Shown piece by piece: positions 1-51,157 of a DNA stretch of 51,533 bases. The notes under the pieces are model-generated. The model worked only from the letters and a program-made list of their open reading frames with translations. It was not told the origin of the DNA and searched no databases. Every line of letters starts with the position of its first letter. Position 1 is the first letter of the stretch. The stretch lies in IMG/VR virus record IMGVR_UViG_2711768018_000019. One strand, given 5' to 3'. The translations under genes and the position numbers were made by a program. Source of the stretch: a virus (lineage: Duplodnaviria > Heunggongvirae > Uroviricota > Caudoviricetes).

Positions 1-573
1 ATGTTTTGCGAAGAAAAAGTAGCTCAAATGGCTGCATACCTACTTCTTAAGCGAGGTGGGCGCATGGCATATCTGAAATTGATGAAGCTGCTCTATCTGT
101 CTAACCGCAAGTCGATTTTGAAGCATGGCAGGATGATCGGCGAAGATAGCCTTTACTCTATGAAATTTGGTCCAGTCATGTCGAATACGCTGAACTTGAT
201 TCGTGGTAAGGCTGAAGGTATTGGTGACTACTGGTACAACCTGATAGAGACGAACGGGCATGATGTGTTGTTGCGTTCAGATCCGAGGGAAATGGATGCA
301 GACGAGGTCTTTGATGAGTTGAGCCGTGCAGATATCCGGATTTTAGATGAAATCTATTCTCTGTATGGGCATATGAACCGATTTGATCTCGCAAACATGA
401 CGCATTTAGAAAGCGTTTGTCCAGAGTGGCACAATCCTGGCAATTCTCGTAAGCCTATAGACCTGAAAGAAATGCTGATCAGTGAGGGTAAAAGCGAGGA
501 TGAGGCTAATCGTATAATTGGCAAAATGGAAGAATCTCAGAAACTTAAGGAATTTTCTTTGCAATTATCATGA
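1..573 (+). CDS. Panacea-domain (DUF4065, SocA/GepA-like) protein, putative antitoxin; may be 5'-truncated by the window edge
   Basis: 190-aa ORF with an N-terminal motif (YLKLMKLLYL ... GEDSLYSMKFGPV) that I recall as typical of DUF4065/Panacea proteins. Its stop overlaps the next ORF's start (ATGA). Confidence 0.5.
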   Translation: MFCEEKVAQMAAYLLLKRGGRMAYLKLMKLLYLSNRKSILKHGRMIGEDSLYSMKFGPVMSNTLNLIRGKAEGIGDYWYNLIETNGHDVLLRSDPREMDADEVFDELSRADIRILDEIYSLYGHMNRFDLANMTHLESVCPEWHNPGNSRKPIDLKEMLISEGKSEDEANRIIGKMEESQKLKEFSLQLS

Positions 574-989
574 CGGATTATCAGCCATACAGGAAAGGAA
601 CTGTGCTTGCCCCAACTGGGCCATGCAATCATCTTCATGTGATTTGTAATGATCCTGTTTATTACCCCGTTAACGATTGTTATTGTGTTTTAGTTGTTAA
701 TATTTCTAGTATCAAGGATGGTGTCCCCCACGATCCGTCTTGCGTCTTGAATTCTGGTGATCATCGCTTTATCAAGCATCCAAGTTATGTTGTTTACGCT
801 GAAGCTATAATTTGGCGAGTGGATAACATGGTTAGAAAGCAGCGATCGGGTGAGATTTCCGTTCATGATGATATGCCAGAAGCTACATTCAATAGAATTC
901 TGGACGGTTTTGATATATCTGATGAAGTTACGCCAAAGAACCTTAAATTTAAAAATAAATATTGCGTATCATCTATTGATGATGAGTAA
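570..989 (+). CDS. Hypothetical protein, candidate toxin partner of the Panacea protein
   Basis: 139-aa ORF, Cys/His-rich, no family recognised. Start overlaps the upstream stop by 4 nt, which suggests translational coupling. Confidence 0.4.
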   Translation: MTDYQPYRKGTVLAPTGPCNHLHVICNDPVYYPVNDCYCVLVVNISSIKDGVPHDPSCVLNSGDHRFIKHPSYVVYAEAIIWRVDNMVRKQRSGEISVHDDMPEATFNRILDGFDISDEVTPKNLKFKNKYCVSSIDDE

Positions 990-1028: not shown

Positions 1029-1202
1029 ATGGAAGATCAAAAAGCAACCAAGCCACAGGTTAAGTTCGACACAATGAAAGCATTCGCAGGTATGGGTGCT
1101 GCTGTTGAAGTTCTGATGAAGGCTGCTCCTAATGCGTTCACTCACGCTACTGTCTCTGGTAAAGAGCAGCAGGGTAAGCTTCGTCGTCGCAAAGCAGCAT
1201 GA
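1029..1202 (+). CDS. Small hypothetical protein (57 aa)
   Basis: Short ORF (MEDQKATKPQVKFDTMKAFAGMGAAVEVLMKAAPNAFTHATVSGKEQQGKLRRRKAA) ending 20 nt before a strong hairpin terminator. Below the ORF-track length cutoff; coding status uncertain. Confidence 0.2.
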   Translation: MEDQKATKPQVKFDTMKAFAGMGAAVEVLMKAAPNAFTHATVSGKEQQGKLRRRKAA

Positions 1203-1249: not shown

Positions 1250-1531
1250 TTAGTGATGTTCTTTGCCCTTCTGTTTGCCTGTTCTGACCTGTTCCCACTC
1301 GATACGTCCTTCTTCTCGTCTTTTGTCTATGTATTCCGCAAGATCCTGAATATTGATGCAACGTTTTGCTTTTTGTGATGTACCGATGCGATATGTAGGT
1401 ACAGGCAACTTACAAGCGTTTGCTTTTGCTTCTGCTGTGGCTGGACTCATACCAAAGTATTTTTGACTAACTGCTGAGAGTTCAATGTTTGGGGTATTGA
1501 ATTCAGCCATCAGTAAAAACAAGGTATTCAT
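1250..1531 (-). CDS. PrtN-family (pyocin-activator-like) phage transcriptional regulator
   Basis: 93-aa ORF starting MNTLFLLMAEF and ending ...IQDLAEYIDKRREE, which matches my recollection of the PrtN/pyocin-activator family of small prophage regulators. Confidence 0.5.
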   Translation of the reverse strand: MNTLFLLMAEFNTPNIELSAVSQKYFGMSPATAEAKANACKLPVPTYRIGTSQKAKRCINIQDLAEYIDKRREEGRIEWEQVRTGKQKGKEHH

Positions 1532-1567: not shown

Positions 1568-2401
1568 TTACTTATTCATTTCAATAATATTATTTTCTAT
1601 CATTGATTTATTTAAAACCAAAGAAGGAGCAAGATGGTTGTCTATTTTAAACAATGCATAACTTTTAAACTGTTGGTGATATCCGTAACTAATAAGGATG
1701 CTAGAAAAATCTCTTAATTCATCTTCTTTTAAAAAATTAAAATGAAATGGGTTGTCACCATTTATGAACAATGAAACATCTATTATGCAGTATTTCTCTC
1801 CGTTGTCATTTGCATAGAAAAAAATATAAGACATTCTGTTTGTTAAGACAATGCCATTAAATTTTCTTATGTCTGTAGCTATTTTGTTTTCCATGTTTGG
1901 TGCTACATATTTATTTTCAGAAATACATTTAATTTCATCTCCAGATGTCGTGATTATATAAAAATGAAACTTATCAGAAATATCTAACTTAACTACGCCA
2001 TCATTATTGTAAAGGCTGCTAAATTTTGGTGGTTCAACTTTTAAAGAATCATAGTTCTTTAAAAGAAGAGGGGAGTCAAATTTAATAACTTGTAGTATCC
2101 CTTTACCTTCAACCTCCATATTGATTGAAGATATAGCAATTGCATTATCTCTTTTATTATTCAGGATTATGGTTGATATATGCATGTCATATATTCTACT
2201 TGCATTTGCTGAATACGACACTGTCACCTTTTTTGATATTTTTTGCACGCCAAAATATATAGTGAAGGCAGCGGCAAGAATAGATAAGAATTTAATGTCA
2301 AATAAGGACCATAGCCACATTAGTTGCTCAATTGCTTCAGAGTTAATCATTTGCTTTACCATTATCGCTGTAATACAACACATGTGTGTATATATACGCA
2401 A
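1568..2401 (-). CDS. AT-rich hypothetical membrane-anchored protein (possible superinfection-exclusion or abortive-infection function)
   Basis: 277-aa ORF in a markedly AT-rich segment, with a hydrophobic N-terminal helix (FLSILAAAFTIYFGV) and a Lys/Asn/Ile-rich body. Exact start is uncertain among several Met codons. Confidence 0.45.
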   Translation of the reverse strand: MRIYTHMCCITAIMVKQMINSEAIEQLMWLWSLFDIKFLSILAAAFTIYFGVQKISKKVTVSYSANASRIYDMHISTIILNNKRDNAIAISSINMEVEGKGILQVIKFDSPLLLKNYDSLKVEPPKFSSLYNNDGVVKLDISDKFHFYIITTSGDEIKCISENKYVAPNMENKIATDIRKFNGIVLTNRMSYIFFYANDNGEKYCIIDVSLFINGDNPFHFNFLKEDELRDFSSILISYGYHQQFKSYALFKIDNHLAPSLVLNKSMIENNIIEMNK

Positions 2402-2538: not shown

Positions 2539-3363
2539 TCAGGCGGTGAAAGTACCAATAAAGGTTTCTACTTTGCTGTCTTTGAATTTCTCAACAAGCA
2601 GATCACGAAATTCGTTAGCCATTTCTTCCTGTACCGCTTCCAGCTGAATAATGCGCAGAACCAGTACAGGACGATCGCCAGTGATAATGCTGAGGCGTAA
2701 TTTAAACGGACGTTCTTTCAGACCTTCAAACGGAACGCATTTAAATTCAAATGCCACTGGCATAATGTCTTTGGTCTTCGCTTCGACAGACTCCATCAGG
2801 GAGCGTTTGCCGCTGAAGTCATTATCTTCAAAATCAGCGGTCTGGTTCGCTTCAATTGTGATTTTACGGATCGCCGCAGCCGCTTTGGTTGCCTGAATGG
2901 CGTCACCATTAGCATCAAAGCCCACAAGGTAGTCGGCCCAGTCTTCAATCCATTCTGCCAGTGACTTCTGGGAGTTACGCTCGCCATTAACAGACAACAG
3001 AGCAGAGAACGGAGCTGTCTTTTTCAGTTTGAGAGTGGCGGTGTTATCTGCGTGACCTGGTTCATCAATAGTACCCAGGTTAAGAACACTGACGGCACGC
3101 ATATTATCAGCATCGATAAAGCAGCGGGTGCCTTCATCTGCAAGATCTTTAGAATAACGAGTAAAGTCATCGATGCTGGCAGTGGAAAGCGCACCACGGA
3201 AACGGAAACGATTTAAATTTAATTTTTCCAGATCATGAATGCGGAAATTCTCAGGCAATGCCACAGCATCGGCACCAATCTTACTGATAATTTCATTAAC
3301 ACCCTGAGCAGAAATAAGGGCATGGATTTGATTAATTGCGGTTGCGTCTAAGTTCTGAGACAT
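2539..3363 (-). CDS. YfdQ-like DUF2303 prophage protein
   Basis: 274-aa ORF beginning [21 protein letters not shown]. Size and sequence match my recollection of the YfdQ/DUF2303 family of lambdoid early-left-operon proteins. Confidence 0.5.
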
Positions 3364-3428
3364 AATAAGTCCTCACTATATAAAGATATTCAGTGATGAG
3401 ATAAATAATCGGTTAATTAAGAACGATA

Positions 3429-3791
3429 TTAATGACCTGCTGCGCGGAGTTTTCCGTCAGGTTCACCGGCAAGAGTCAGTAATTGTCCCTGGTCTTCCTG
3501 CAGAATAGTCAGGCGACCACCGCGATTGACATACATCGGCGTTTCGGTGGTGTCTTCTTCGGAAATTTTCCCGCGGTTAGTCGGGCGAACATATGAGAGT
3601 TTGTGTTTGATTTTCACACGGTTCTCATCAAATGGTTCGATTTCCAGGTTGAGTGAGACCTTACCTTTGGTTTTCGTGTTCATCACACCGGAAGCGACTT
3701 CACTGAGAACTGCGCCGATTTTGGTTTCAAATACGCCGCCGTCCAGCTCCCCAATAAATGCCTGCACATCAGTACTGCGTTCGCTAGCCAT
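3429..3791 (-). CDS. Hypothetical early-left-operon protein (121 aa)
   Basis: The ORF-track ORF 3429..3977 has an internal start (MASERSTDVQAF...) at 3791 preceded by an RBS-like aggagca; upstream ATGs lack an RBS. Gly/Glu-rich soluble protein. Confidence 0.4.
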   Translation of the reverse strand: MASERSTDVQAFIGELDGGVFETKIGAVLSEVASGVMNTKTKGKVSLNLEIEPFDENRVKIKHKLSYVRPTNRGKISEEDTTETPMYVNRGGRLTILQEDQGQLLTLAGEPDGKLRAAGH

Positions 3792-4410
3792 TTTGCTGCT
3801 CCTAATCATATCGACCCTGCAAGGTCGGTTGGTTTCTCCACAAAACAGAGAAGAACACCTGCGGTGGCAGCCGCCCGGATGGATTTGGTTATGAGCCCGT
3901 CGTCCGGTGATGCTCTTCTCTGTTTTGTAAAAAGAGCGGTACCAGCCGGAAGCAAGTGTACAAACTGGTACCGCCAAAGCAGTGGCTGTTGTGGTGACCG
4001 GTGCTGATCTCCGGCTTGCGGTTATTTCAGACTCTCACGGGCGTTTAATTGCCCCGCCGAACAGCTCTTTTCCGCATTAGCTGCAATGTCTTTCGCGCAT
4101 CAGCCTGCGCATTCACCACAACGCTGAGAGCACTTAGCCAGTTACGGCACCACACTTTGTCGCGGTTCCATAAATGTCCTCATCGTTGCACCCTGGTCTC
4201 TTCCCAGGCGTCAAACCGAATCGCCACGCTGGTTAGGCGTCTTATCAGCATCATCATTGACTTGCACATTCCGGCTACCTGGTTTGTTTGCCCGAGCAAG
4301 GAGTGGATTGTCCCCTTTAACGTCCCCAGACCGCTAACGACGCATGTGCCATACGCCGTGTTACAACCAAATTTTGTTTAATCTTGCCTGTGCTGTGTTT
4401 CTTTTAGATA

Positions 4411-4439
4411 CATTATGTATCCCAAAGGTACATTGTCAA
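4411..4439 (-). promoter_or_regulatory. pL-like leftward promoter with overlapping operator (OL)
   Basis: On the minus strand: -35 TTGACA (4439..4434), 17-nt spacer, -10 ATAATG (4416..4411). The palindrome ATGTATCccaaaGGTACAT (4415-4433) overlaps the spacer and shares the GGTACA half-site seen at OR. Confidence 0.5.
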
Positions 4440-4443
4440 GTAT

Positions 4444-4466
4444 AAAAAAACCTGCCGAAGCAGGTT
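4444..4466 (-). terminator. Rho-independent terminator downstream of the repressor gene
   Basis: Minus strand reads acctgcTTCGgcaggt followed by a 7-T run, 12 nt after the cI stop. Confidence 0.65.
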
Positions 4467-4477
4467 ATAAATATTGA

Positions 4478-5152
4478 TTAGGCCTTTATTATGTATCTTC
4501 TTGGTTTTCCTGAGAAAATCACTGTACCAATTATAGAGCAATTACCGTTAATCTTAATGTAAGGCTCAGGCCAGTTTGGGTTTAATGCTTTGAGATAACG
4601 CTGTGTTCCATCTTCTATCAACCGCTTGAAGGTGGTTTCGCCTGTATCGTGCATCAATGCAATAACGTCGTCACCGTGGCAGGCAGGGACTTCAGGATCA
4701 ACAAAAATCATGTCTCCCGGGCGGTACTCATCAATCATTGAATCACCAATCACCCGCAAGATATAAGTCATTTCGCCACAGGGTACAGGGCAGGGATAAG
4801 TTTCTGCTGTGCTCAAATCAACCTCAGAATAGCCAACTTCTTTCCATGCTCCGGCCTGTACCCATGATATGACAGGGACTAACGTTATTTGTTTGTTAGT
4901 GATTGAAACGTCAGGTTTTTTTGTGATGTTCGTTGTCTGGTGTTCTTGATCAAGCCATCCGACAGGCAGGTCGAAACATTTTTCGATGTGCCGTGCCATG
5001 CTGTCACCGATATTTTTAGTTGCACCATCTCCCATAAACCTGCTGGTCTGGGTTGGCTCGCGATCAATCATGGTGGCAAAGGAAGAATTCCCGCCAACAC
5101 CATCTCTCAGTTTTCTGGCGTTAGACCGCCGGATGTCATGGACTGTTTTCAT
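4478..5152 (-). CDS. cI: CI-type prophage repressor (HTH plus S24 LexA-like peptidase domain)
   Basis: 224 aa. N-terminal HTH region and a C-terminal S24 signature with Ser in GDSM (VIGDSMIDEYRPGDMIFVD) and a downstream Lys (TTFKRL). Divergent from the Cro-like gene across an operator region. Confidence 0.8.
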   Translation of the reverse strand: MKTVHDIRRSNARKLRDGVGGNSSFATMIDREPTQTSRFMGDGATKNIGDSMARHIEKCFDLPVGWLDQEHQTTNITKKPDVSITNKQITLVPVISWVQAGAWKEVGYSEVDLSTAETYPCPVPCGEMTYILRVIGDSMIDEYRPGDMIFVDPEVPACHGDDVIALMHDTGETTFKRLIEDGTQRYLKALNPNWPEPYIKINGNCSIIGTVIFSGKPRRYIIKA

Positions 5153-5242
5153 AAAGAAATTAAAACCTTTGTACCGATAAGGTACAAGTATCTTGAAGGT
5201 TCATCTCAATCATGTAATATGTATACCGGAGGTACATATTGT
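5153..5242. promoter_or_regulatory. OR region: operators with divergent pRM/pR promoters
   Basis: Perfect palindrome TTGTACCgataaGGTACAA at 5169-5187; second imperfect site GTATACCggaGGTACAT at 5221-5237. pR candidate: -35 TTGAAG (5193-5198), 16-nt spacer, -10 TAATAT (5215-5220), upstream of the Cro-like ATG at 5243. Confidence 0.55.
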
Positions 5243-5443
5243 ATGAAAGCGTATTGGGACTCTTTAACCAAAGAACAGCAGGGTGAGTTGGCCGGAAAAG
5301 TTGGCTCAACACCAGGCTACTTACGGCTGGTTTTCAATGGTTATAAAAAAGCCAGTTTTGTGCTGGCTAAAAAACTTGAGCAATGCACGTCAGGTGCAAT
5401 TACGAAATCTGACTTAAGACCGGATATCTATCCGAAAGATTAA
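5243..5443 (+). CDS. cro: Cro-like (YdaS-family) HTH regulator
   Basis: 66-aa ORF (MKAYWDSLTKEQQGELAGKVGSTPGYLRLV...SDLRPDIYPKD) with RBS ggagg. The HTH and C-terminal DLRPD motif are typical of YdaS/Cro-family proteins. Not in the ORF track because the 4940..5443 frame shadows it. Confidence 0.6.
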   Translation: MKAYWDSLTKEQQGELAGKVGSTPGYLRLVFNGYKKASFVLAKKLEQCTSGAITKSDLRPDIYPKD

Positions 5444-46502: not shown

Positions 46503-47873
46503 CTATGATATCCCTGAAATGTCCTCTTCAAGCTCTTTTACTGATTTCGCAATTTTAAATTTAAATTTTCTCTCTATTTCACTATTGCTAAGTTTTTTTT
46601 CATTCTCTTTCCCTATCCACATAGAAACAATTTCTCGTTTCTGAGATATATGTAGATTGTCAAAGTTAGGTATGTATTTAAAAGTCTCCGCTCTACCCCT
46701 GCGGAGTTCATAGAAAGTTTTAATCAAAGACTTTGGTTTTATTTCTGATGAAAGGCCGAATCGGCGGATAAGATTATTGATCGTATGATTAACAGCTCGA
46801 AGTTGAGCTGTTGACGTTATTTGTGAGAAGTACGATACCCATCCCAATCGTTTACCTTCAAACACACATCCCGTAATTCTAAGATTTAGTTTCCACTGAC
46901 AATATGCAACAGCTCGTTCTTTATCGCGCTTATTTTTAGCTTGTAGTAGAGCGTGTCTATATGCAGTAAAAATTTTTGCTAAGGATGACTCAAATCTAAG
47001 AATGCTCTCATGTTTTATCAATAATTCTCGATTTTTTATGTGGTAGCCCAAAAAGTTGAAACTTTCATCCAAGCTGCCTACTTTGGATTTTGAGTTCTCT
47101 TCATTTAATGGATGTGGGTTTAAATTTAATGATTGAAGCTTATCAATGATATGAGAAGCTATTTTTGTTGCTTGATATTTTGGTGTTAAAATAAGAATGT
47201 CATCAACGTATCGCATGTACCATATGTCATGCATTTTATTGATTTCATCATCGAAATTAGATAGTGATATTTCAGCTAAAATGTTTGATATCGCTAATCC
47301 CTGAGGTACTCCTCTGGTATTATTAGGGATACCTTTGCTTCCTGTGGTTCCACTTACAGTAGGCACGATTAATGATGATGTTATTAACTGTCTAATTTCT
47401 TTTTTTCTAATTTTATTTTTTATTGCATTAATTATCAATTTATGTTCAATTGAAGGATAGAAACTTTTAAGATCTATTTTTGCATATTCAGCATATAGAC
47501 TGTTGTTTAATGCTTCTTTCAATGAGTCAATTACTGTATGTGGTAGTTTTAATCTGGACTTAGGATATATTTCCGTAAGGCATTCACAGAGAGCTCTAAG
47601 AGTAATTCTGTCCCTAGCAGTTGGTATGGAAATCTGTCTGGGTGTAGAGTTAGCGCCTTTAGATATTAATTTTTCTTTATATGCTGTAAATTTGTAATTG
47701 CCAGAATTAACCTTTTCAAAAATGAAAGTGATCTCATTTTTTATTGTCAAATCAAGTTTTGATGGGCGAATCCGATCTATGCCAATCGCTCCTGATTCTT
47801 TGATTTTTTCAGAGTATACTTTTAGAAGATTTTTTTTCGAGAATGACTTTTTAAAAATTCTGCTTGCAGTCAT
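46503..47873 (-). CDS. Reverse transcriptase (defence-associated, retron/UG/Abi-like; unclassified)
   Basis: 456 aa from the ATG at 47873..47871. RT motifs: RQISIPTARDRI (motif 1), AKIDLKSFYPSI (motif 2), RGVPQGLAISNILAEI (QG motif), YMRYVDDILIL (YxDD active site), FLGYHI (thumb). AT-rich; start overlaps the upstream gene's 3' end. Confidence 0.8.
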   Translation of the reverse strand: MTASRIFKKSFSKKNLLKVYSEKIKESGAIGIDRIRPSKLDLTIKNEITFIFEKVNSGNYKFTAYKEKLISKGANSTPRQISIPTARDRITLRALCECLTEIYPKSRLKLPHTVIDSLKEALNNSLYAEYAKIDLKSFYPSIEHKLIINAIKNKIRKKEIRQLITSSLIVPTVSGTTGSKGIPNNTRGVPQGLAISNILAEISLSNFDDEINKMHDIWYMRYVDDILILTPKYQATKIASHIIDKLQSLNLNPHPLNEENSKSKVGSLDESFNFLGYHIKNRELLIKHESILRFESSLAKIFTAYRHALLQAKNKRDKERAVAYCQWKLNLRITGCVFEGKRLGWVSYFSQITSTAQLRAVNHTINNLIRRFGLSSEIKPKSLIKTFYELRRGRAETFKYIPNFDNLHISQKREIVSMWIGKENEKKLSNSEIERKFKFKIAKSVKELEEDISGIS

Positions 47874-48402
47874 AGTCAATCCAAAGATATATTAATGGGA
47901 GTATATAAAGTGCGGCAGTAATAAATATTCGAAGTAATATCCATAAAATAACAATTATTTTTTCTTTTTGTGTGGGGATCCTCGTCTTAAGTCCAACTTG
48001 AGTTACCCTTGAAATTTTATCATCTATGTCACGGTGATTCTCAACCTCATTGAGCAAATTAAAATATTTTTCTTTCTGTTCAAGAGATAACTGTTGACTG
48101 GTGGTAATGTCAAAATAGAGTCGCTGTAGTGCAATATAATTCCTTCTCATGGCTATTGCTCGACCACGAAAATCTAGGTTAGATACGATCAGAGAAATAC
48201 CCAGTAGAGCCACTGAAAGTATCGCCGCAACGACATCTGTATTATCTCCTAGAACCTTTGGAAATCGCAACGTTACAATTGAAAGTACCGCACTCAATAT
48301 AGCATACCAAACGAGGATAAATTGAGAGTGTTTTTCAAGCCATTCTAGTCGATGGTGCGCTTGGATACGTGCTTTATATGTAAACCAAATATTGTCATGC
48401 AT
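47851..48402 (-). CDS. Small multi-TM membrane protein (SLATT-like candidate effector) co-transcribed with the RT
   Basis: 183 aa, RBS aagga. Two adjacent TM helices (FILVWYAILSAVLSIVTL; VVAAILSVALLGISLIVS) and a third at the C-terminus (IIVILWILLRIFITAALYILPLIYLW). Its 3' end overlaps the RT start by about 23 nt. Confidence 0.6.
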   Translation of the reverse strand: MHDNIWFTYKARIQAHHRLEWLEKHSQFILVWYAILSAVLSIVTLRFPKVLGDNTDVVAAILSVALLGISLIVSNLDFRGRAIAMRRNYIALQRLYFDITTSQQLSLEQKEKYFNLLNEVENHRDIDDKISRVTQVGLKTRIPTQKEKIIVILWILLRIFITAALYILPLIYLWIDYDCKQNF

Positions 48403-48933: not shown

Positions 48934-50031
48934 TCAAGAGGTCTTATTTCTGCTCCTTTGGAGTTCTTCAAAACGATTATGTAAAGATTTCGGATACAGT
49001 TCGGTATATACCTGCCATAGCACGTTTAATGAACGATGCCCTGTAACCTGAGCGACTTCCTCAATACTAAAACCAGCCTCAAATAAGCGACTTGCCCCTT
49101 CTCTACGCAAATCATGGTATCTCAGATCTTTAATACCTAATTTGCTTCTTACCCTCTGAAATCCTGCGGTAACAGAAGTGCTGTTATATGGAAAAATGAA
49201 TTCTGATTTTTTGGGTTGTCGCTGGACGATATCCCAGGCTTCCCCAAGCAAGGCAACTTTCATATGGTTGCCTTCCTTTTTACGTGGATCTTTCCTGTCT
49301 CTTACTAGTATAGATTTTTGTTCCTGGTCGAGATCTTCCCATCGTAACCGGCATACTTCTCCGATTCGCATACAGGACCACACAGAAAATTTGAGGATAT
49401 CAACGAACGGAATTTTTGAGCATTTATGAGTAGATCGTTGTTGAAGGCCTTCAATGAGCATGTTCAGTTCATCAGATGCTGGTCTACGATTACGACGGTT
49501 TGATTTACCAATCAAACCGAGTTTAAGTAGATATGGACGAGCGCTTTTCGCCGGGTTTGATGTGTAATTGATTCCGTATACAGGTTTTGCCGCATCCAGA
49601 ACACTGCCAAGATAACTAACATCGTGGCTGACTGTTGCTGGGCCTGCACCAGCGTTGTTTCTTAGCCTGCAATGTTCAATTACGTCATTTTCTGTCAGTT
49701 CAGATAGTTTGATCGCGGAGATGTCACTATCCATAAGCAGTTCCAGCACATATCTTTTAGTACGGCCTGCTTTACCTCCGGCATTTGGGTCATTTAAATA
49801 TTTGTGTAGTAAGTCACGGACTGTAAGTCCGTCAACAGCATTTGATGATGGAATGCCATATAGATCTAATTCCATCACTTTCTGTGCGCCCCATGTTTTG
49901 GCATGAGCATGTTTAGGGAATGTTTTGCTTTCCCTGTAAGTGATAACACCTTTTTCTTTGATAATCACATTACAGCGATAGCGTGGTGTGCCATCGGATT
50001 TTAGTCGTTTCTCTATGTTATAGTACGCCAT
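48934..50031 (-). CDS. int: Tyrosine integrase (DusA-associated family)
   Basis: 365 aa with C-terminal catalytic-domain motifs (HDLRREGASRL, VTGHRSLNVLWQVY); lies immediately beside and divergent from dusA. Confidence 0.85.
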   Translation of the reverse strand: MAYYNIEKRLKSDGTPRYRCNVIIKEKGVITYRESKTFPKHAHAKTWGAQKVMELDLYGIPSSNAVDGLTVRDLLHKYLNDPNAGGKAGRTKRYVLELLMDSDISAIKLSELTENDVIEHCRLRNNAGAGPATVSHDVSYLGSVLDAAKPVYGINYTSNPAKSARPYLLKLGLIGKSNRRNRRPASDELNMLIEGLQQRSTHKCSKIPFVDILKFSVWSCMRIGEVCRLRWEDLDQEQKSILVRDRKDPRKKEGNHMKVALLGEAWDIVQRQPKKSEFIFPYNSTSVTAGFQRVRSKLGIKDLRYHDLRREGASRLFEAGFSIEEVAQVTGHRSLNVLWQVYTELYPKSLHNRFEELQRSRNKTS

Positions 50032-50119: not shown

Positions 50120-51157
50120 ATGCACGATAATCCTGAAACACAGAAAACTAATCAAACCAGCGTGATGCCTGAAAAAACTGGCGCTTACTGGAGTTCTCGG
50201 TTTAGCATTGCTCCTATGCTCGACTGGACGGACAGACATTGCCGCTATTTCTTGCGTCTGCTTTCCCGCAATACGTTGCTGTATACCGAAATGGTGACCA
50301 CAGGGGCGATTATTCACGGTAAAGGTGATTACCTGGCGTACAGTGAAGAAGAACATCCGGTAGCGTTGCAACTCGGCGGTAGCGATCCGGCGGCGCTGGC
50401 ACAGTGTGCGAAGCTGGCAGAAGCGCGTGGATATGATGAGATCAACCTGAATGTCGGCTGCCCGTCTGACCGGGTGCAGAACGGCATGTTTGGTGCGTGT
50501 CTGATGGGTAATGCGCAGCTGGTTGCCGACTGCGTGAAAGCGATGCGCGATGTGGTGTCGATTCCAGTGACGGTGAAAACGCGTATTGGCATCGATGACC
50601 AGGACAGCTATGAATTTCTCTGCGATTTCATCAACACCGTTTCCGGCAAAGGCGAGTGTGAGATGTTTATCATCCACGCACGTAAAGCCTGGCTTTCGGG
50701 GTTAAGCCCGAAAGAAAACCGTGAAATCCCGCCACTCGATTATCCGCGTGTGTATCAACTGAAGCGTGACTTTCCGCATCTGACAATGTCGATTAACGGT
50801 GGTATCAAGTCGCTGGAAGAGGCCAAAGCACACCTGCAACATATGGATGGCGTGATGGTCGGGCGCGAGGCGTATCAGAATCCGGGTATTCTGGCGGCGG
50901 TAGACCGGGAGATCTTTGGTTCCTCGGATACCGATGCCGATCCGGTGGCGGTAGTGCGCGCCATGTATCCGTACATTGAGCGTGAACTCAGCCAGGGGAC
51001 GTATCTCGGCCATATTACCCGGCATATGTTGGGCTTGTTCCAGGGTATTCCTGGCGCGCGGCAGTGGCGGCGTTATTTAAGTGAAAATGCCCATAAAGCG
51101 GGTGCAGACATTAATGTGCTGGAACACGCGCTCAAACTGGTGGCGGATAAGCGTTAA
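50120..51157 (+). CDS. dusA: tRNA-dihydrouridine synthase A
   Basis: 345 aa; TIM-barrel Dus family ([22 protein letters not shown] ... NLNVGCPS ... catalytic Cys region). The first ~25 codons are probably prophage-derived. Confidence 0.9.

Follow-up and report, generated by a model that had tools for sequence, protein, structure and literature searches.

A putative Panacea-domain antitoxin gene overlapping a putative toxin gene of predicted MazF-like fold at the attL end of a dusA-integrated Escherichia coli prophage

What do two overlapping genes do at the very start of a prophage? The question is raised by a viral DNA of 51,533 nucleotides (nt), IMG/VR record IMGVR_UViG_2711768018_000019, the whole of which is referred to here as the window. 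Its first open reading frame (ORF1, 1-573, plus strand) encodes a Panacea-domain protein of 190 amino acids (aa) and runs into a second (ORF2, 570-989, plus strand) encoding 139 aa. Based on domain searches, synteny, structure prediction and homology to a pair tested by others, we propose, with a probability of roughly three in four, that ORF1 and ORF2 constitute an accessory type II PanA/PanT toxin-antitoxin module, located near attL in a lambdoid Escherichia coli prophage integrated in dusA. ORF1 would be the antitoxin gene panA and ORF2 the putative toxin gene panT, belonging to PanT cluster T6 and predicted to have a MazF/Kid/CcdB-like fold.

Residues 27-137 of ORF1 match the Pfam family PF13274 (SocA_Panacea) at E 1.8e-18, scoring 67.9 bits where the gathering cut-off is 25.7, and the match spans positions 1-109 of the 113-position model. 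The first-pass annotation had read a Panacea/DUF4065 motif here, which this hidden Markov model search confirms, and had suspected that the window edge truncates the gene, which is not the case. Annotations of phages Lys8385Vzw and SKA5 contain the same 573-nt coding sequence, as does RefSeq (WP_000458583.1, ‘Panacea domain-containing protein’, 190 aa); in the upstream DNA of an identical E. coli locus a GAGG lies ~8 nt before the ATG, and the protein begins with the consensus of its family, MF.E.K.AQMAAY. The antitoxin is complete. It has no N-terminal domain and extends ~50 aa beyond the Panacea domain at its C-terminus, where a motif is common to the PanAs paired with T6 toxins (T134, H135, E142, W143, P146, S149 and I153).

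The junction of the two genes was also described correctly at the outset: read directly from the letters, an ATGA at 570-573 joins them, the ORF1 stop TGA (571-573) and the ORF2 ATG (570-572) overlapping within 4 nt. On inspection no Shine-Dalgarno sequence precedes this ATG, which is consistent with coupling by reinitiation. RefSeq/PGAP places the start of ORF2 at a GTG at 603 (128 aa, WP_014640052.1) and thereby omits 11 N-terminal residues that are conserved in the family. The conservation of P6, K9, G10 and T11 among family members identifies the ATG at 570 as the true start. Equally accurate was the description of ORF2 as rich in cysteine and histidine, with six of each (4.3% each) versus 1.1% Cys and 2.6% His in ORF1. 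In E. coli strain 7_33_46A, IS903B splits panT at about nt 710 while panA is intact and the prophage mostly gone (positions 3001-4711 of that locus); this locus is a toxin-disrupted remnant. A look-up in a protein collection placed ORF1 and ORF2, which are unrelated, in one 90%-identity cluster of 541 members, presumably a clustering artefact that arose, perhaps, through read-through or a fused gene call.

Are the two genes inherited as a unit? A scan of species-representative genomes with the ORF2 family gave 39 loci. A long same-strand ORF ends between -4 and +33 nt from the ORF2 homologue in 35 of 38 loci, each from a different species, and the 4-nt overlap recurs identically in 18 of the 38. 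All 39 upstream neighbours scanned carry PF13274 (33 from genomes, five from phages or prophages, and the window's own). The pairing of panA with panT is far beyond chance. Across 32 loci, a PanA more similar to ORF1 tends to accompany a PanT more similar to ORF2 (Spearman 0.82 between the identities), which implies that the genes travel together; this correlated divergence is consistent with, rather than proof of, a PanA-PanT complex. The two-gene unit also occurs in unrelated mobile elements, namely lambdoid phages of E. coli, Yersinia and Klebsiella, a P2-like Pseudomonas phage, a Vinavirales Vibrio phage and a Helicobacter prophage. Kurata et al. (2022) recognise PanAT pairs by a distance of at most 100 nt between the genes, by conserved pairing and by a conserved neighbourhood of no more than three genes. 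Here the genes overlap by 4 nt, a Panacea gene lies immediately upstream on the same strand in the 35 of 38 species-level loci and in the five phages or prophages, and the next gene downstream, ORF3, is unlinked to the pair elsewhere.

To which toxins does ORF2 belong? It has no significant match in Pfam, NCBIfam or PADLOC, in keeping with the first-pass annotation, which saw no recognised family; weak ICMT and DapC matches were at chance level and far under the cut-offs, and the only match was phrog_19071, of unknown function. The family is nonetheless large, as indicated by an exhaustive profile search that returned 2703 cluster representatives (50% clustering) at E <= 1e-3; a first protein search had found 62 relatives, all named ‘hypothetical’ and mainly from Enterobacterales, Vibrio and Shewanella. 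In 78 distant relatives His21 is invariant, and Leu22, Asp55, Cys58, Gly63, His65, Phe67, Ser72, Tyr76, Gly113 and Ser117 are at least 90% conserved. His23 and Cys26 vary across the family, so that the Cys/His-rich appearance of ORF2 reduces to the set His21, Asp55, Cys58 and His65. A zinc-finger-like reading of this richness was dropped, as only His21, Cys58 and His65, together with Asp55, are conserved family-wide.

Panacea-associated toxins have been sorted into 88 clusters (Kurata et al. 2022, PNAS, PMC8832971). In Dataset S1 of that study, cluster T6 has the antitoxin first, with overlaps mainly of -4 or -1, and is annotated by HHpred as ‘EndoA/PemK/MazF-family RNAses’; its members come from Proteus, Pluralibacter, Pantoea, Photorhabdus, Halomonas and Methyloprofundus and include a validated pair from Pseudomonas moraviensis (PMC8832971). 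The P. moraviensis PanT is toxic in E. coli and growth is restored by its cognate PanA, the two proteins co-purify in a pull-down, and the toxin specifically blocks incorporation of 35S-methionine (PMC8832971). Three of our scanned loci correspond by strain and spacing to T6 rows, namely Pantoea septica LMG 5345 (-4), strain 2016-Iso4 (-1) and Salinivibrio socompensis S35 (+1). Pseudomonas was missed by the genome scan because of its peptide pattern, HLH[VIF][IV]C[NS][DN]P, and the P. moraviensis protein was reached through a second protein search, seeded with the homologue from Pseudomonas phage Sirocco, and a cluster look-up. ORF2 is 43% identical over 120 residues to SDU72800.1 of P. moraviensis BS3668 (E 6e-34). 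In Pseudomonas sp. B10, whose homologue falls in the same 90%-identity cluster as SDU72800.1, the toxin gene overlaps an upstream Panacea gene by 1 nt; the N-terminus of the latter, (V)IFSEQKVAQ, equals the ten residues that Kurata et al. added to PanA Pse.mor (PMC8832971), and ORF1 is 42% identical to this B10 PanA. From these sequence relationships ORF2 can be assigned to PanT cluster T6.

The predicted structure points in the same direction. An AlphaFold2 model of ORF2 built on a 54-sequence alignment (pLDDT 90.1, pTM 0.84) has five main strands, a long ordered loop at 48-71 and three C-terminal helices. When it was compared with the PDB by Foldseek, the best 50 matches were all MazF (best E 3.8e-3, TM 0.44-0.63). 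Based on this three-dimensional comparison of the model, ORF2 is predicted to have the MazF/Kid/CcdB fold. MazF, which cuts single-stranded RNA at specific sequences, uses Arg29, in the β1-β2 region, and Thr52 for catalysis; by secondary-structure register, His21 and Ser46/Ser47 of the ORF2 model would take their places.

How is the pair set within the prophage? The prophage in the window is lambdoid and sits in the 5' end of dusA; over 1-1250 the window is 100% identical to a locus in E. coli AR_0085. In this identical locus a displaced 5' fragment of the host dusA (MHGNSEMQKINQTSAMPEKTDVHW...; positions 3643-3747 of the locus) lies 254 nt upstream of the panA ATG, which implies that the window begins just inside attL and that panA is the first prophage gene. 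At the right end, the integrase gene (48934-50031, minus strand) is divergent from dusA (50120-51157), whose first codons are supplied by the phage; pspG also lies there, and a 16-nt core, ATGCCTGAAAAAACTG, is common to the left end and to the right end at 50165. Outside the window, 127-155 nt upstream of panA, there is a sigma-70-like site, TTGACC-17-TAAACT; the promoter scan overall was not enriched over shuffles, so that this site is only a candidate. Read-through from the host into panA is also possible, because the displaced dusA fragment points the same way.

Downstream of panT lies ORF3 (1029-1202, plus strand; 57 aa), which matches phrog_2741, of unknown function, and has its own GGAG Shine-Dalgarno sequence. 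A strong intrinsic terminator at 1221-1246 on the plus strand, GAAAACCCGCC-TTTA-GGCGGGTTTTT followed by a T-run, was found by scanning the identical AR_0085 locus (positions 5221-5246 there). It closes the panA-panT-ORF3 transcription unit and faces the convergent xis/PrtN gene (1250-1531, minus strand). ORF3 is probably co-transcribed with panAT, because it is placed between panT and the terminator. The idea that ORF3 completes the module as a third gene was rejected: ORF3 occurs without the pair in mEp460, in O157 prophages and in ~360 more E. coli genomes, beyond the 205 of 5426 complete E. coli genomes (about 4%) that contain the panA-panT-ORF3 trio, and in the other phages examined it is not next to a panAT pair. 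ORF3 is also found 98-99% identical beside the xis/PrtN gene in ~565 E. coli genomes, whatever the upstream cargo.

Two sister dusA elements, phage mEp460 and the O157:H7 SS52 prophage, have a single 177-aa gene matching phrog_4350, of unknown function (2284-2817 in both loci), in the slot taken here by panAT, bounded by ORF3 on one side and by the attachment site on the other (attP in mEp460, attL in SS52); their similarity to the window begins at ~1016. The presence of a different gene in the same slot identifies panAT as an exchangeable cassette and ORF3 as backbone. A second cargo region, of 34% G+C, is found at the attR end (46503-48402, minus strand), flanked by a tail-fibre assembly gene and by dinI/int. 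It encodes a reverse transcriptase (PADLOC RT_UG17, E 1e-158; Pfam RVT_1) that overlaps an upstream 183-aa SLATT_5 protein with two transmembrane segments (PADLOC RTasSLATT, E 1.5e-56). Between the xis/PrtN gene and yfdQ there is, in addition, a 277-aa ORF (1568-2401, minus strand) of 29% G+C with a hydrophobic N-terminal segment. It matches phrog_14996, of unknown function (E 3e-178), has no Pfam or PADLOC match and is absent at the same position in phage Lys8385Vzw and E. coli AR_0085; it is probably another moron.

We propose the following sequence of events for the pair. A single mRNA would start at the candidate promoter upstream of the window and end at 1221-1246, with translation of panA and panT coupled through the ATGA. 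The MazF-fold PanT would most likely block translation and so arrest growth, probably by acting as an endoribonuclease. PanA, which has no N-terminal domain and carries the conserved C-terminal extension, would most likely hold PanT inactive through direct binding. Domain identity, predicted fold, synteny, co-inheritance, homology to a validated pair, the cassette boundaries and the position in the prophage are established in this analysis. We infer that ORF2 is toxic and that ORF1 neutralises it, as well as the RNase chemistry, the region of PanA in contact with PanT and the gain for the prophage, which may lie in retention of the element, in exclusion of other phages, or in both.

Several observations weigh against this proposal. 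The toxicity, neutralisation, complex formation and target ascribed to the E. coli pair are carried over from a homologue of 43% identity, and we infer that SDU72800.1 is the tested protein WP_083201923.1 from strain, cluster, spacing and the N-terminus of PanA. Not every predicted PanT is toxic: eight of 25 proved non-toxic in E. coli, among them the T1 partners from E. coli MOD1 and Salmonella phage Emek (PMC8832971), two proteins of E. coli and Salmonella prophages. The Foldseek values are modest, and the likeness of ORF2 to MazF is structural only. At E <= 0.1, PF02452 (PemK_toxin) matches neither ORF2 nor any of the 78 relatives scanned. Profiles built from 54 and from 78 members were run against PDB sequences and gave no MazF and nothing significant, and hhalign of the family against four MazF/Kid/ChpB sequences, taken from a small MazF/Kid/EndoA/ChpB alignment, gave a probability of 0.1%. 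The MazF link accordingly rests on structure and on the published HHpred annotation. The catalytic Arg/Thr pair of MazF is not evident in ORF2, where His21, Asp55, Cys58, His65, Ser72 and Tyr76 are conserved instead, so that the chemistry could differ; RNase activity is a prediction even for the P. moraviensis homologue. Finally, PanA has no recognisable DNA-binding domain, which leaves autoregulation unexplained.

Could the pair serve a different purpose, or could ORF2 be something other than a toxin of this kind? One explanation is that the pair acts mainly against phages, by abortive infection or superinfection exclusion, with PanA as a sensor that frees or activates PanT on infection rather than as part of a classical addiction module. 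The difference lies in the biological role, and the biochemistry proposed above would fit either reading. A defence role is plausible because of the variable slot by attL, where sister prophages carry a different gene, and the defence-type DRT UG17/SLATT system, a reverse transcriptase with a SLATT effector, at the other end; the module is, moreover, present in many temperate phages. PADLOC-DB v2.0.0, however, gave no family at E <= 1 for ORF1, ORF2 or ORF3, and the literature yielded no report of phage defence by a T6 PanAT and no known trigger, so we regard a mainly anti-phage role as possible while leaning against it. A bolder combination, which strikes us as rather unlikely, would have T6 PanT act not as a MazF-type RNase but through some other chemistry on the MazF scaffold, using His21, Asp55, Cys58 and His65, and would have the pair operate as a phage-triggered defence module in the exchangeable attL slot. 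These residues would form a metal site or a Cys/His-type catalytic centre in the 48-71 loop. If true, either point would go beyond the findings of Kurata et al., who showed for a single homologue that translation is arrested, that PanA neutralises the toxin and that the two form a complex.

That ORF2 does not inhibit growth of E. coli at all, having some other, non-toxic function or being toxic only under conditions that normal cells never meet, would agree with the eight non-toxic PanTs, which include prophage-borne T1 partners, and with the lack of obvious MazF catalytic residues in ORF2. Against it stand the T6 homologue of 43% identity, which is toxic and is neutralised by its PanA, and the strict two-gene linkage with a 4-nt overlap across more than 35 species, typical of toxin-antitoxin pairs; we consider it improbable. 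Still less credence is due to the idea that ORF2 is a CcdB-like gyrase poison instead of a MazF-like translation inhibitor, as both the ranking of structural matches and the labelling result for the homologue disfavour it. The first-pass annotation had gone further and combined a Panacea antitoxin and a coupled toxin in a prophage with the suggestion that ORF2 is the toxin of a new family. The former part holds up on the domain, the synteny, the correlated divergence and the validated homologue. The latter does not: ORF2 does lack a Pfam, NCBIfam or PADLOC family and any sequence-level match to solved structures, but it has 2703 relatives at 50% clustering and falls in a cluster already catalogued as T6, with a MazF-like annotation and one validated member, and that it founds a new family is the least credible of these explanations.

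What follows if ORF1 and ORF2 are a PanA/PanT module? In ~4% of complete E. coli genomes, a ‘hypothetical protein’ can be named as a PanT of cluster T6, with a predicted MazF fold and a PanA partner, and its RefSeq start should shift to the ATG at 570. The lambdoid prophages that integrate in dusA carry swappable cargo at both ends, PanAT at attL and DRT/SLATT at attR. The pair also offers a T6 member native to E. coli in which the target and chemistry of the toxin, its neutralisation by a PanA without an N-terminal domain, and phage defence can be probed.

How does the pair compare with known systems? Its family has already been described and validated in part, and this uncharacterised member from an E. 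coli prophage calls for no new category. With SocA-SocB of Caulobacter crescentus, a type VI system whose antitoxin is the founding Panacea/DUF4065 protein, the pair has the Panacea domain of the antitoxin in common. SocB is a DnaN-binding toxin, for which SocA serves as a ClpXP adaptor. The partner of ORF1 has a predicted MazF fold instead, and in the validated homologous pair toxin and antitoxin form a stable complex, as type II systems typically do. ORF1 was rejected as a SocA equivalog on its score of 13.5 bits against NCBIfam NF047745, where the cut-off is 190, and on the MazF-like fold of its partner. From MazF, PemK and Kid (PF02452), ORF2 differs in having no detectable sequence-level similarity and in having a Panacea protein as its antitoxin, rather than an AbrB/SpoVT or ribbon-helix-helix MazE. 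Compared with MazF, the ORF2 model has a short β1-β2 loop, the long ordered loop at 48-71 and two extra C-terminal helices, and its family conserves His21, Asp55, Cys58 and His65 and not the Arg/Thr pair. The T1 pairs of E. coli MOD1 and Salmonella phage vB_SemP_Emek are likewise enterobacterial and prophage-borne, with the antitoxin first and overlapping genes, but their toxins form another cluster, the overlaps are -20 and -62, and they are non-toxic in E. coli (PMC8832971); a tblastn search with ORF2 among phages did not find Emek. The closest parallel is the P. moraviensis pair. Its locus is chromosomal and tagged ‘NotPhage’, whereas the pair described here lies in a dusA-integrated lambdoid prophage of E. 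coli, and position 63, Gly in the enterobacterial proteins, is Glu in that of Pseudomonas. The two pairs have several features in common: the antitoxin comes first, stop and start overlap, and the PanAs have no N-terminal domain, the same N-terminal sequence and C-terminal motif and 42% identity (with the P. moraviensis-type PanA), while the toxins, of ~132-139 aa and 43% identity, have the conserved His, Asp, Cys and His at the same positions.
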